Assembly: GCA_041657885.1 (NCBI GenBank)
Contig: JBBABB010000001.1
Coordinates: 129,094-193,093 of the forward strand
Reading direction: 5' to 3'
DNA from: Minisyncoccota bacterium
GTDB taxonomy: Bacteria; Patescibacteriota; Minisyncoccia; Phycocordibacterales; UBA9973
Length of the DNA stretch: 64,000 nucleotides
The translations under genes were made by a program, and so were the position numbers. The notes below the pieces were generated by a model. That model did not search any database. It worked only from the letters and a program-made list of their open reading frames with translations, and was not told the origin of the DNA. Position 1 is the first letter of the stretch; each line of letters opens with the position of its first letter. This document shows positions 8,608 to 58,413 of this stretch, one piece after another.

Positions 8608-9195
8608 ATGATGTTAATTGTTGGATTAGGAAATCCAGGAGAAGAATATAAAATTTCGCGACATAATACGGGACAAATAATTGTTGAAAATATTGCAAGT
8701 AGTAATGATTTTTCTGAATGGAAAAATAATATGAAATTAAAATCTCTTTGTGCGAAAGGTGAGATTGGAAAAGAAAAATTTGATTTTATACTTCCTGAAA
8801 CTTTTATGAATAATTCAGGAAATGCAGTGGTTCAGCTTATTGATAATCCTAAAAAGCTCAGAAATTTGATTGTGATTTATGATGATATAGATTTACCCTT
8901 TGGTAATTTGAAGATTTCTTTTAATCGTAGTTCGGGTGGACACAATGGACTTGAATCAGTAATAAAGAAAATTAAGTCAAAGAAATTTATTAGAATTCGT
9001 ATTGGAATTTCGCCACTAACTCCCTCGGGAAAATTACGAAAGCCAAAAGGAGAGAAGGCAGTGTTGAAGTTCTTGCTCGGAAAGTATAAGGAAGATGAAT
9101 TAAAAGAATTAAAAAAGATTTCAAAAACGGTGGCAGAAATCATTATGGTGATTTCTGCCGAAGGAAAAGAAAAAGCGATGAGCGTCTATAATTAA
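8608..9195 (+). CDS. pth: Peptidyl-tRNA hydrolase
   Basis: MMLIVGLGNPGEEY...RHNTG N-terminus. Confidence 0.85.
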   Translation: MMLIVGLGNPGEEYKISRHNTGQIIVENIASSNDFSEWKNNMKLKSLCAKGEIGKEKFDFILPETFMNNSGNAVVQLIDNPKKLRNLIVIYDDIDLPFGNLKISFNRSSGGHNGLESVIKKIKSKKFIRIRIGISPLTPSGKLRKPKGEKAVLKFLLGKYKEDELKELKKISKTVAEIIMVISAEGKEKAMSVYN

Positions 9196-10325
9196 ATACT
9201 AGAACCTGCTTTTGCGTCTTCCAAATACACAAGAGTCATTCTTTGATCTTTAGCTTCGAATAATGTTATTTGGAAATTATATGTTTTACCTAATTCAAGT
9301 ATCTTTTTTAATTTTTCTTCTGAACCAAACCCTGAATTATGTACTAACCCTGCAACACCTTGCTTGATAGAAACAAGCGCGCCGTGTTTATTGAATTTAA
9401 TGACAACCCCGGAGACAATATCTCCTTTCTTGAGAGTGTTTTCAAATTCATTCCATGGATTTTCTTTTAGAGCTTTAATTGAAAGAGATATTTTGCCATC
9501 TTTTATTTCAATTATTTTTGCCTTAACTTTATCTCCAATCTTAAACATTGTTCGTGGGTCTTCTACTAACCCCCAATCAATTTCAGAAATATGGACTAGT
9601 CCCTCAAGGCCCTCTTCTAATTTTAAGAATATACCAAAGTCTACGATTCCCGCAACGACACATTCTAATTCATTACCGACGGTGTATTTACCAACAATTT
9701 CTTTTCTTTCTTCTGGATTATTGTCTTTCTCTGAGAAGATAAGTTTACCTTCTTTTGGTAGAGCTGAAATCATTACGACATTTATACGTTTACCGATAAG
9801 TAATTTTAGCGCTTTTAATATTTTATCTTTATCAGAATCTTCTACGCGTGGATAGTGGTCACTCTTTAGCTGACTTGCAGGAAGAAATCCGGCAATACCT
9901 TGCCATTCCAAAATAAGTCCACCCTTGTTTGCTTCTTTGATTGTAAGTTCAAGAGCTTCCTTTGATTTAATGATTTTCTCTGCTTCGTTCCAGATGAGAG
10001 CTTGTTTTGCTTCTTTGAGTGATAATTCAACATAACCTTCTTCATTGTCAGTTGAAACAACCTTTGCTTTAACAACATCACCAATATTTACTTTCTTGAT
10101 AATATCTTTCGCATTTATAAACTCTCGTCCGTAAATAATACCGGTACCGAATGGTGCTAGGTCAATATAAACAGATGATTTTTGAATTAAGATCACAGGA
10201 CCTTCGACGAGTGCATCTACTTGAGGTGGAAGCTCTGCTCTATCCAACATTTTACCGATACTAGAAAGCTCTTTTTTTGCATGTTCTGCAATGTTTTCTA
10301 TTATATCTTTGTCTTCTTTTTTCAT
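9192..10325 (-). CDS. rpsA: 30S ribosomal protein S1 (reduced, about 4 S1 domains)
   Basis: Repeated S1-domain motifs (G.V.G.V....FG.FV.L..G..GL.H.SE). Confidence 0.8.
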   Translation of the reverse strand: MKKEDKDIIENIAEHAKKELSSIGKMLDRAELPPQVDALVEGPVILIQKSSVYIDLAPFGTGIIYGREFINAKDIIKKVNIGDVVKAKVVSTDNEEGYVELSLKEAKQALIWNEAEKIIKSKEALELTIKEANKGGLILEWQGIAGFLPASQLKSDHYPRVEDSDKDKILKALKLLIGKRINVVMISALPKEGKLIFSEKDNNPEERKEIVGKYTVGNELECVVAGIVDFGIFLKLEEGLEGLVHISEIDWGLVEDPRTMFKIGDKVKAKIIEIKDGKISLSIKALKENPWNEFENTLKKGDIVSGVVIKFNKHGALVSIKQGVAGLVHNSGFGSEEKLKKILELGKTYNFQITLFEAKDQRMTLVYLEDAKAGSSI

Positions 10326-10490
10326 AATAATTTGTTGCTAGGTCTTGCCTAGCAAATAAAAAAACCGCATCTTGCGGCGCAGTTGAAGATCTTTTTGTTT
10401 CTATAAACTAAACACAAAAAGGGTTAACCTTCAAACCGAGCTTATAACAGGTTTAATATATCACAAAAGGGAATATCTTGCAAGCCAGTT

Positions 10491-10515
10491 CAGATAGGGG
10501 CTTAGCCCCTATCTG
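10491..10515. repeat. REP-like 25-bp perfect palindrome cagataggggcttagcccctatctg (copy 1, upstream of RAYT)
   Basis: Perfect inverted repeat. Copies at 10731..10755 and 11236..11260. Confidence 0.8.
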
Positions 10516-10544
10516 GGGAATTTAACTTGTAGTATAATAAAAAT

Positions 10545-11249
10545 ATGAGCATAAGAAAACAACCTTTAGTAACAGGGGAAATGTATCATATTTACAATCG
10601 CGGGGTAGACAAGCGAGATATTTTTTCAGATAAAAATGACATTTATCGTTTTATTGAAAGTATTAAAGAATTTAATAGAATAGAAAAAATAGACAGTCTT
10701 GCAAATCTAAGAAAAATAAAATCAAATTCTCAGATAGGGGCTAAGCCCCTATCTGAAGGACCGTTAGTAGAGATTATAGGATATTGCCTTAATCCTAACC
10801 ACTTTCATTTTATATTAAGACAGTCAAATGATAATGGAATCACTAAATTTATGCATAAACTTCTAGGGGGATATACATCTTATTTTAATATTAAAAATTC
10901 TAGATCAGGGTCTCTATTTCAAGGAACTTTTAAATCACAAACTATAACTAATGAAGATTATTTTAATAAGTTAATAGGTTATGTTAACAAAAACTATCAA
11001 ATTCACAGTATTCCAGAAAATAAAAATGATTTAGTTTTTTCGGGGGATTATGAATATGAAAATAATAAATTCAATATTATTTCTAAAAAAGAAGGGGAAA
11101 ATATTTTAGAGGTTTTTGGAGGTGTAAAAAAATTTAAAAAACATTGTGATGAAATAGTTTCTATTGTTAGAGAGGAAAGAGGTAAAAAATCTTTACTTGA
11201 AGATGAAGATTTGAATGTAATTATAGAAAGTCTCCCAGATAGGGGCTAA
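10545..11249 (+). CDS. REP-associated tyrosine transposase (RAYT; IS200-like HuH-Y1 transposase, COG1943 family)
   Basis: MYHIYNRGVDKRDIF...NPNHFHFIL (HuH) ...GGYTSYFN...SGSLFQGTFKS...YVNKNYQ matches the Y1_Tnp/RayT pattern. Flanked by REP palindromes. TATAAT 6 nt upstream of the ATG. Confidence 0.8.
   Translation: MSIRKQPLVTGEMYHIYNRGVDKRDIFSDKNDIYRFIESIKEFNRIEKIDSLANLRKIKSNSQIGAKPLSEGPLVEIIGYCLNPNHFHFILRQSNDNGITKFMHKLLGGYTSYFNIKNSRSGSLFQGTFKSQTITNEDYFNKLIGYVNKNYQIHSIPENKNDLVFSGDYEYENNKFNIISKKEGENILEVFGGVKKFKKHCDEIVSIVREERGKKSLLEDEDLNVIIESLPDRG
10731..10755. repeat. REP palindrome copy 2, in frame inside the RAYT ORF (encodes QIGAKPLSE)
   Basis: Same 25-mer (one central base differs), codon-aligned. 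Confidence 0.8.
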
Positions 11250-11260
11250 GCCCCTATCTG
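11236..11260. repeat. REP palindrome copy 3, overlapping the RAYT stop codon (TAA in the palindrome loop)
   Basis: Same 25-mer; the stop codon 11247..11249 lies in its centre. Confidence 0.8.
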
Positions 11261-11310
11261 AGAGATTGGGCGTTTTTGAGAGTTTTACGCTTTGATGTTT
11301 ATAAATTATT

Positions 11311-42742: not shown

Positions 42743-44083
42743 ATGGTGATTAAAAATAATAAAACAGTATTTATTGGGGTTTCCCCGAATAGAAGAGTAC
42801 TTCCTACGGGGCAGGCAGGCGGAGTTAAGCCTACTGTTTTTGTTGGTGTTTCAGGAGGTGTTGACAGTTCGGTTTCCGCGGCCCTTTTAAAAGAGGCTAC
42901 ACCAAAAAATTTTAAAAAATTTTTTGGTCGCCCGACCCCGAAGGGGTTTAGAGGATACAATGTAGTTGGGGTTTTTATTCGTACTTGGACACCGGATTTT
43001 ATAGAATGTACTTGGAAAAATGAGCGTCGTGATGCTATGCGAGTATGTGCGCATCTTAATATTCCTTTTTTAGAATGTGATGCTGAAAAAGAATATAAAA
43101 AAAGTGTGGTAGATTATATGATTGAAGAATATAAAAAAGGTAATACTCCAAACCCCGATGTAATGTGTAATCGAGAAGTTAAATTTGGAGTGTTTTGGAA
43201 ATTTGCACAATCTCACGGGGCAGATTTTATTGCCACGGGGCACTATGCACGCAAATCTCCCCTCCTTGTGGAGGAGGGGGTAGGGGGTGGTGATCCAAAA
43301 GAATTACCACCTCGCCCTGCGGGCACTCCTCCTCGAAAAGGAGGAGAGGAAATGCATAAATTACTAAAAGGTATTGACTCATCCAAAGACCAAGTTTATT
43401 TTTTGTGGACTTTAACGCAGGAAGATTTGTCTCATATTTTATTTCCCATTGGACATTTAAAAAAGACAGAAGTTCGTAAACTTGCAAAGAAATATAATCT
43501 TCCAACTGCGACGAAAAAAGACAGTCAGGGTATTTGTTTTCTGGGGCTACTTGATATGAAGGATTTCTTGAGACACTATATTAAATCAGAAAAAGGGAAT
43601 GTTTTGCTTGCCCGTCACGATAGTGAATTAGGGAATGAAAAGGGACCTGCCCGCCCTCACGAAAGTTCGGGAGCAGGCGGGGAAATAATTGGAAATCATA
43701 ATGGCGCGGTATTTTTCACTCTTGGAGAAAGACATGGATTTACTCTTAATAAACATTCCGAAAATGATGAACCTTTATATGTAATATCAAAAGATATAAA
43801 AAATAACACCATTACTGTTTCCCCTAGGCCTTGCCTAGGGGAAGAAGACGAACCACATAGGACCGTCCTATGTAATAATGCAAACTGGATTTCAGGTATA
43901 CCAGAAAAAGATAAGGTGTATATAGCTCAAATTCGTTATCATGGAGAGTTTTTAGATTGTAAAGTGGTCGTCACAGGTCAGACCTGTGAAATAACTTTTG
44001 ATAAAAATGTAATTGTTGATAAAGGACAATCAATAGTTATTTATGATGGGGATATTTGCCTAGGGGGTGGTGTGGTAATTTAA
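42743..44083 (+). CDS. mnmA: tRNA-specific 2-thiouridylase MnmA with at least 5 in-frame GC-rich insertions
   Basis: VGVSGGVDSSVSA (PP-loop), NPDVMCN, TGHYAR, KDQVYFL, QGICFLG. 446 aa versus about 360 aa for orthologs. Confidence 0.8.
   Translation: MVIKNNKTVFIGVSPNRRVLPTGQAGGVKPTVFVGVSGGVDSSVSAALLKEATPKNFKKFFGRPTPKGFRGYNVVGVFIRTWTPDFIECTWKNERRDAMRVCAHLNIPFLECDAEKEYKKSVVDYMIEEYKKGNTPNPDVMCNREVKFGVFWKFAQSHGADFIATGHYARKSPLLVEEGVGGGDPKELPPRPAGTPPRKGGEEMHKLLKGIDSSKDQVYFLWTLTQEDLSHILFPIGHLKKTEVRKLAKKYNLPTATKKDSQGICFLGLLDMKDFLRHYIKSEKGNVLLARHDSELGNEKGPARPHESSGAGGEIIGNHNGAVFFTLGERHGFTLNKHSENDEPLYVISKDIKNNTITVSPRPCLGEEDEPHRTVLCNNANWISGIPEKDKVYIAQIRYHGEFLDCKVVVTGQTCEITFDKNVIVDKGQSIVIYDGDICLGGGVVI
43646..43683. 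repeat. Family E element, identical copy inserted in frame in mnmA
   Basis: The same 38-mer as in typA. Confidence 0.8.
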
Positions 44084-44104
44084 ATTTTTTGGTATAATAT
44101 ACAT

Positions 44105-58369: not shown

Positions 58370-58413
58370 CAGACAGTGCCTAAAGCGCTATGTAGCGCTT
58401 TAGGCACTGTCTG
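58370..58413 (+). terminator. Long perfect hairpin (about 19-bp stem cagacagtgcctaaagcgc...gcgctttaggcactgtctg) after dnaJ
   Basis: Perfect inverted repeat; a weak T-tract follows. Confidence 0.55.

Follow-up and report, generated by a model that had tools for sequence, protein, structure and literature searches.

The subject of this analysis is a gene in a 64-kb stretch of genomic DNA from a Minisyncoccota bacterium (the window, meaning the whole stretch analyzed) that encodes a Y1/HUH tyrosine nuclease-transposase resembling the tyrosine transposases that accompany repetitive extragenic palindromes (REPs), known as RAYTs. The open reading frame (ORF) and three copies of one hairpin, named hp1, hp2 and hp3, were read directly from the sequence: hp1 lies upstream of the gene, hp2 within it and in frame, and hp3 at its 3' end. 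Comparison with related loci has shown that this three-hairpin layout is an old family trait, ancestral to a family with no fewer than 2,646 detected homologues from bacteria of the candidate phyla radiation (CPR), in which the copies at each gene match one another while differing between genes. The features of the locus are as follows.

10491-10515: hp1, the upstream hairpin; 11-bp stem and 3-nt loop reading TTA on the + strand
10533-10538, + strand: predicted -10 promoter box TATAAT, 6 nt 5' of the ATG
10545-11249, + strand: RAYT-like Y1/HUH tyrosine nuclease-transposase gene; 234 aa, with a family-specific C-terminal tail of ~80 aa
10731-10755: hp2, the internal hairpin, in frame; 12-bp stem (10730-10756) and loop reading TAA on the + strand; encodes QIGAKPLS
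10800-10808, + strand: codons of the HUH motif H86-F87-H88, from the sequence; H86 and H88 invariant in 76/76 family members
10980-10997, + strand: codons of the catalytic tyrosine motif Y146-V-N-K-N150-Y151, from the sequence; Y146 and N150 invariant in 76/76 family members
11236-11260: hp3, the 3' hairpin; the gene's stop codon, TAA, forms its loop (+ strand); extended imperfect stem 11231-11265

The 25-mer CAGATAGGGGC-TTA-GCCCCTATCTG is found at hp1 (10491-10515) and its reverse complement at both hp2 and hp3; as the loops also indicate (TTA for hp1, TAA for the other two), hp1 is inverted relative to hp2 and hp3. The initial annotation of this DNA had placed a perfect 25-bp palindrome at the same three positions, with the stop codon (TAA, 11247-11249) forming the loop of the last copy and the internal copy aligned with the codons of the gene, and the sequence agrees on each point, with the refinement that hp1 is the reverse complement. 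Together, hp1 and hp3 make up an inverted repeat that is perfect over 28 bp (10490-10517 paired with 11234-11261). When folded as single-stranded DNA (ssDNA), the copies each form a stem of 11-16 bp closed by a 3-nt loop; the folding energies lie between -11.8 and -15.8 kcal/mol, with z from -4 to -6.6. At position 11261, two of the four other assemblies with an identical protein (L104 and L107) carry G instead of A, converting a C·A mismatch to a C·G pair and lengthening the hp3 stem to 16 perfect pairs.

The 3' end of hp1 lies 29 nt from the ATG, so that the hairpin covers the place where a -35 element would be. The position of TATAAT, 6 nt 5' of the start codon, implies a leaderless mRNA, which would leave hp1 outside the transcript. 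This promoter arrangement had been described as shared with native genes, and a TAnnAT box (TGnTATAAT-like) is indeed present 4-9 nt 5' of the ATG in ~15 of the 50 long ORFs of the window (at 8608, 11326, 16028, 23463 and 44105, for example); a Shine-Dalgarno motif is present in none of the 50. The pattern suggests that leaderless mRNAs are widespread, and apparently the rule, in this genome.

The hairpin triplet across the homologue family

The best 120 of the homologues detected are 68-100% identical to the window protein and 219-246 aa long, and the hosts named among them are Paceibacterota or Nomurabacteria metagenome-assembled genomes (MAGs). To a set of 80 genomic loci retrieved from CPR MAGs (42-82% identity), 75 of which could be assessed, we applied a single criterion, a perfect hairpin that contains GC and has 8 bp or more. 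An upstream hairpin (within 130 nt 5' of the ATG) was found at 56 of the 75 loci and a 3' hairpin (at or just past the stop codon) also at 56, with an internal hairpin (ORF nt +150 to +260) at 40; the background rate is 0.035 hairpins per 110 nt. Across the family the upstream hairpin always ends 3-30 nt 5' of the ATG, and at 34 loci all three copies match.

The stems vary widely among loci (CAGATAGGGGC, CAGAAAGGGCC, CACCCAGCGCC, AACTCAGACGT, TCGGGTGT, TTCGGACGT, ACTTGGAAGC, CTACAGTAGC, ATGGACAC and others), and the identity of the 11-nt arms is 0.89 within loci versus 0.49 between them. The effect is clearest in the close syntenic orthologues, where the stem pair fourth from the loop has G in the window, C in L003, T in L004 and A in L005 and L006, with the copies in agreement at this pair within every one of these loci. 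Variation between loci combined with matching within them is the signature of concerted evolution, not of independent point mutation. In MAGs with two or three paralogues, each paralogue has a different hairpin, and hairpin type follows the protein phylogeny. At L028, the upstream and internal copies (AGATAGGAC-CTAAA) are not matched by the 3' hairpin (CCAGATAGTGC-CTGAA), which is instead of the same type as that of L024, a locus in another MAG. The loci L001 and L025 are likewise mosaic, and individual hairpins may thus be swapped. The position of the 3' hairpin relative to the stop codon ranges from -23 to +33 across loci, so the stop codon in the loop was rejected as a designed feature and is incidental to the subfamily of the window.

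The internal copy was analyzed in an alignment of the 40 loci at which it is intact (31 nt centered on the palindrome). Pairing was retained in 93.9% of the stem cells, compared with 30-38% in slid controls, a percentage that is partly circular because the 40 loci were chosen for having the hairpin. The diversity of the stems is not circular: 10 of the 11 stem pairs show double-sided changes (143 cells), one-sided changes number only 2, and in none of 500 shuffles did the covariation score come up to the observed one. A single pair, G10-C22, does not vary. G·U pairs are nearly absent from the internal stem, indicating a constraint on the DNA palindrome and not on RNA structure; with hp1 also outside the predicted leaderless transcript, an RNA-level structure is disfavored.

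The peptides encoded by the internal hairpin are unrelated across the family (QIGAKPLS, EIAPKALS, HPAPKALG, SSGVGHPTR, DSDVGRPNP, SLGSKASKL and KNGHPVSIE), and relative to the codons the palindrome center takes two different registers. The DNA palindrome thus carries the peptide along as a passenger, a functional peptide from this segment was rejected, and the two registers together with the unrelated peptides show that the site has undergone turnover. Among close homologues, a QIGxKPLS-type peptide is present in all 20 that were aligned (a C-terminal LPDRG is likewise shared), and variants such as QIAPKALS resemble compensatory changes. Most of the loci scored as negative for the internal hairpin contain decayed remnants in the same place that still resemble their own flanking hairpins, so the internal site is ancestral and decaying in some lineages. 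In the structural model, residues 49-70 form a low-confidence coil (predicted local distance difference test score, pLDDT, 33-35) between a helix (30-43) and a strand (75-82), which fits an hp2 insert in a permissive linker preceding the HUH strand. In two distant members, L077:2881-3585 and L079:1311-1982, the Y---N motif is immediately followed by a second in-frame cognate hairpin, translated as HQLGSSTPKLG in the former and as VHQLGGSASKLVR in the latter; the family has thus come to have in-frame hairpins at more than one site.

The encoded protein and its genomic context

The Pfam check proposed for the ORF returned a Y1_Tnp (PF01797) match at 29.5 bits, above the cut-off of 23, with residues 75-149 only aligned. 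H86, H88, Q126, Y146 and N150 are invariant in the alignment of 76 family members, signifying that the catalytic apparatus is under purifying selection. There is a single catalytic tyrosine, Y146, with the polar N150 four positions on and a spacing of 60 aa between HuH and Y, and the NHFH and Y---N motifs are class-2-like features. The best Foldseek matches of the (poor) AlphaFold model are the TnpA proteins of IS608, ISDra2 and IS200, with E ~1e-3 and a TM score of 0.5; profile searches of PDB sequences found no Y1 structure, and only this fold comparison ties the protein to TnpA. The earlier assignment to a RAYT/IS200-type Y1/HUH enzyme is upheld by the Pfam score and the invariant residues, with the tentative fold matches pointing the same way. 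When 31 diverse family members were compared with NCBIfam, all matched REP_Tyr_transpos, each below threshold, and none matched the IS200 models. The profile matches support a protein closer to RAYT than to IS200, and the best label, on sequence grounds, is a RAYT-like subclass of its own and not a textbook RAYT.

One neighbor of the gene, on the minus strand, encodes an S1-domain (rpsA-like) protein, as had been reported; the other is a Lactamase_B_3 gene of the metallo-β-lactamase (MBL) fold. All orthologues at 74-86% identity stand in the order rpsA(-), Y1(+), MBL-fold, orf110, gyrA, and in these loci the neighboring rpsA and gyrA are 82-94% identical to those of the window. Four other assemblies encode an identical protein in the same context, with cassettes differing by 0-2 bases, and the 64-kb window has one copy of the Y1 gene. 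No relatives were found in viral contigs, and phage carriage was dropped as an explanation for this reason. The conserved synteny and the lack of viral relatives mark a domesticated, vertically inherited gene as opposed to an active insertion sequence (IS); vertical inheritance is what the comparison of loci indicates.

At L068, a relative without the Y1 cassette, the rpsA and MBL genes are adjacent. The spacer between them contains no solo hairpin or remnant that could be an insertion scar, and it is too diverged to define the cassette borders. On the minus strand of the window, a small GC hairpin with a T-run after it (10364-10378) lies just upstream of the rpsA start, and L068 has a hairpin and T-run of different sequence similarly placed (~9985-10003); this may be a leader or attenuator element of rpsA rather than a part of the cassette.

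Solo copies and comparison with known systems

The 25-nt hairpin is a symmetric palindrome that resembles a double-foot REP. The genome-wide search for further copies suggested by the initial annotation had a mixed outcome, as the remaining 63 kb of the window hold none and metagenome contigs do. An exact-stem scan of 241 million metagenome records returned 23 stretches, comprising five orthologous cassettes and 18 solo copies in low-GC contigs. All 18 solo copies are intergenic. About 10 of them start no more than 30 nt from a stop codon, and in many cases the copy is part of a longer palindrome that, with its A- and T-runs, looks like a bidirectional terminator; two copies share one 23-kb contig. 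A solo copy of the exact hairpin of the window stands at L082:1636-1660, 18 nt 3' of the mnmA stop codon, and is absent from the orthologous 21-nt spacer in the window (44084-44104), a presence/absence polymorphism of a solo REP. In the flanks of 69 loci (668 kb), 12 loci have additional copies, 29 in all; most lie no more than 1.5 kb from the gene, and some form inverted doublets. In position and insertion polymorphism the hairpin thus appears to behave like a REP, with an apparently low copy number; low REP copy number has been reported for RAYT groups 1 and 4 of Bertels (PMC5581495).

Other palindromes were observed in the window. One with a 20-bp stem, CAGACAGTGCCTAAAGCGCT-ATGT-AGCGCTTTAGGCACTGTCTG (58370-58413), starts 4 nt past the stop codon of a gene and has the appearance of a pair of truncated REP halves, inverted relative to each other; it resembles the type of paralogue L023 (AGACAGTGC-CTAAA), and the window contains no cognate Y1 gene for it. 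The mnmA-like gene (42743-44083) has several lineage-specific in-frame inserts relative to its L082 orthologue. Two of these coincide with short, GC-rich, perfect palindromes: the first with 43259-43279 and 43326-43346 (PLLVEEG / TPPRKGGE), the second with TTCCCCTAGGC-CTT-GCCTAGGGGAA at 43819-43843 (translated as SPRPCLGE). A fourth palindrome, at 43971-43989, falls where the sequence has been substituted and the lengths differ by only 1 aa. In-frame palindromic inserts resembling the Rickettsia palindromic elements (RPEs) may therefore be general in this genome.

The closest precedent is subclass 2.4 of TnpA(REP), which corresponds to group 4 of Bertels and for which REPs in frame in their own gene were described by Quentin et al. 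2018 (PMC6006769). Both subclass 2.4 and the family of the window combine a Y1/HUH gene flanked by cognate palindromes with a palindrome inside the gene and in frame, a HuH motif of the NH[IFV]H type, a symmetric REP with a foot motif on both sides, a low copy number, and divergent co-resident paralogues that each have their own REP, the last being described for RAYT-REP pairs (PMC6006769). In subclass 2.4 the insert lies between HuH and Y, which are ~88 aa apart, whereas here it precedes the HUH strand (aa 63-70) and the spacing is 60 aa; W-Q and YIxNNP are replaced by F-Q and Y---N[Y/N/D/H]; the median length is 194 aa there and 234 aa here, with a conserved C-terminal tail of ~80 aa; and the hosts belong to other phyla there and to CPR here. 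An internal REP that is family-wide and evolves in concert with its flanks is a further difference, the main text of PMC6006769 (Figure S10 aside) having no such description.

The Escherichia coli REPtron (Nunvar 2010, PMC2817692; Messing 2012, PMC3479197; PMC6006769) similarly consists of a Y1 gene that is single-copy and inherited vertically, with inverted cognate hairpins on both sides; these hairpins are also found extragenically near the 3' ends of genes, and the HUH and Tyr chemistry on ssDNA hairpins would, by analogy, be common to both. However, the REPs of E. coli are imperfect, possess a 5' GTAG foot and number hundreds per genome, whereas those of the window family are perfect 25-nt palindromes, few, with a degenerate foot; E. 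coli has no internal in-frame REP; and the window protein scores 27.7 bits where the RAYT equivalog model demands 80. The view of the locus as a textbook RAYT-REP unit is consequently sustained in part, in that inverted palindromes bracket the gene and solo copies occur elsewhere, and fails on the word textbook, given this score, the F-Q pair and the Y---N[Y/N/D/H] motif.

Short palindromes in frame in functional genes, tolerated in loops, are also known from the RPEs and from intragenic REPs, and Di Nocera et al. 2013 (PMC3733652) described REPs that overlap RAYT gene ends, REPs that supply stop codons and intragenic REPs. The in-frame palindromes of mnmA in the window add to this likeness. 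Unlike an RPE, the internal hairpin resides in the gene of the presumed mobilizing enzyme itself and has stayed matched to the gene-flanking copies over long evolutionary time. Full-text literature searches for RAYT/REP systems in CPR bacteria returned nothing relevant.

Readings of the cassette

Taken together, the locus is probably a vertically inherited gene for a RAYT-like Y1/HUH nuclease of CPR bacteria (Paceibacteria/Nomurabacteria-type) that forms a compact REPtron with three cognate hairpins and retains an intact HUH/Tyr core. All three copies would then be substrates of one sequence-specific process, most likely the recognition by the encoded enzyme of the hairpin extruded in ssDNA, by analogy with E. 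coli TnpA(REP) and IS608 TnpA. In a model drawn from these two enzymes (PMC3479197; PMC6006769), a metal would be held by H86, H88 and N150, with nicking and rejoining via Y146. Cassette copies could be homogenized by gene conversion, by hairpin-templated repair or by enzyme-mediated copy replacement, and the same activity could seed solo copies beside the 3' ends of genes, where they look like terminators.

In cis, the hairpins may act on expression. With its end 3-30 nt before the ATG across the family and its position over the -35/spacer region of the putative leaderless promoter, hp1 is well placed for promoter occlusion, and hp3 may end or stabilize the transcript. There is no T-run next to hp3 on the + strand, and the terminator scanner called only minus-strand sites, at hp2 and hp3; hp3 was therefore rejected as the intrinsic terminator of the gene. 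For hp2, the most likely reading is an ancient in-frame REP in a permissive loop, tolerated and continually re-homogenized, and it may have an additional autoregulatory role.

A number of observations weigh against the REPtron reading. The protein reaches only 27.7 bits on the NCBIfam equivalog model REP_Tyr_transpos (NF047646), far below the 80-bit cut-off; the class-2 W(Q/E) motif is absent, F125-Q126 standing in place of W-Q; and in the 76 members the tyrosine motif is Y146-x-x-x-N150 followed by Y, N, D or H, with P not among the four commonest residues. The AlphaFold2 model, built from a shallow alignment, is of low confidence (mean pLDDT 53.7). The foot of the family is [A/T][T/C][A/G]G, in which only the G is invariant, and not a strict GT[AG]G (the window has ATAG, and GTAG occurs in a few loci). 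Dispersal is low compared with classical REPs, with only 23 exact matches in 241 million records and, at up to three mismatches, no occurrence of the 25-mer in the remaining 63 kb of the window beyond the three sites (100 shuffles gave 0). The loop orientation of the three copies varies among loci, so no fixed left-end/right-end polarity can be read from them, and such a polarity was rejected. Finally, the internal copy is intact at fewer loci (40/75) than either flanking copy (56/75 each); its lower retention suggests weaker constraint and is a better fit to a tolerated passenger than to an essential site.

A more speculative proposal, which we consider less likely than not, though more than a remote chance, is that hp2, with hp1, is a built-in self-target through which the enzyme, by binding or nicking its own gene, throttles or inactivates its own expression, and that the cassette copies might also be the master templates for solo terminator hairpins. 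The self-target would act as a copy control for a domesticated nuclease. If either part were true, the CPR family would offer thousands of natural enzyme-hairpin pairs from which a hairpin-recognition code of HUH enzymes could be read.

Compared with the REPtron reading, it is unlikely that the hairpins are generic host regulatory or terminator elements (RNA or DNA), unrelated to the specificity of the enzyme and matched only by local gene conversion. The location of solo copies right past stop codons, in longer palindromes with T-runs like intrinsic terminators, is what such elements would lead one to expect, as is the way that hp3 closes the ORF and hp1 adjoins the promoter, and the window is rich in terminator-like hairpins of other, unrelated kinds. 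However, hairpin type tracks the protein phylogeny with each paralogue keeping its own type, the triple layout is tied to the gene family over the 42-88% identity sampled, the scarcity of G·U pairs opposes a purely RNA-level constraint, hp1 would lie outside the leaderless transcript, and hp3 has no adjacent + strand T-run.

An autonomous IS200-type IS is a similarly unlikely explanation. In this scheme, a ~770-bp element would transpose as ssDNA, with hp1 as its subterminal left-end and hp3 as its subterminal right-end hairpin, and hp2 would be incidental. There is some resemblance to IS200/IS605 elements (subclass 1.1, with IS200 and IS608 TnpA): the fold of the low-confidence model best matches the IS608 and IS200 TnpA proteins, the unit is compact (~0.7 kb, or ~770 bp with its hairpins), with a single Y1 gene bounded by hairpins, one of them just upstream of the gene, and the rpsA-MBL adjacency without a cassette at L068 resembles an empty site. 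Yet the element keeps a fixed syntenic position in all orthologues at 74-86% identity and in the four assemblies with an identical protein; multiple identical copies are lacking, with one copy in 64 kb and with paralogues in the same MAG only 47-64% identical to the query and bearing different hairpins; solo hairpins are dispersed without the gene; and viral contigs contain no relatives. The protein, too, has Y---N in place of the Y---Q that PMC6006769 gives for subclass 1.1, and no NCBIfam IS200 model was matched.

A recent, accidental REP self-insertion into the transposase gene of one organism, the unusual event proposed in the initial annotation, can be set aside as extremely improbable, since the 100% identity of the three window copies and a linker longer than the Pfam model spacing are outweighed by occupancy of the same in-frame site in 40/75 loci, down to 43% identity, by remnants in most of the others, and by QIGxKPLS-type peptides already in 20/20 of the close homologues aligned. 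REPs in frame in their own tnpA(REP) had also been reported before, for subclass 2.4 (PMC6006769).

Because in-frame REPs in tnpA(REP) were reported in 2018, the REPtron reading does not overturn current views: the principle is already known, and what is new is a RAYT-like subclass specific to CPR whose triple-hairpin cassette is ancestral, the clean concerted evolution of its copies, and the scale. The latter two, and the matching of enzyme and site in each locus, give the family its value as a study system. In the internal hairpin, it is clearly the palindrome in the DNA, and not the protein, that determines the coding sequence, and the homogenization of copies within each locus demands a mechanism. 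RAYT-REP systems are a leading example of a domesticated transposase that co-evolves with short repeats, and the co-evolution of their specificity is poorly understood; the tiny genomes of CPR bacteria (Patescibacteria) are thought to be poor in mobile DNA. To these genomes the analysis adds a large, previously uncharacterized RAYT-like subclass. As each gene has up to three hairpins of its own at fixed positions, every locus reports a matched enzyme-site pair, and such pairs make the co-variation of specificity directly analyzable and testable.

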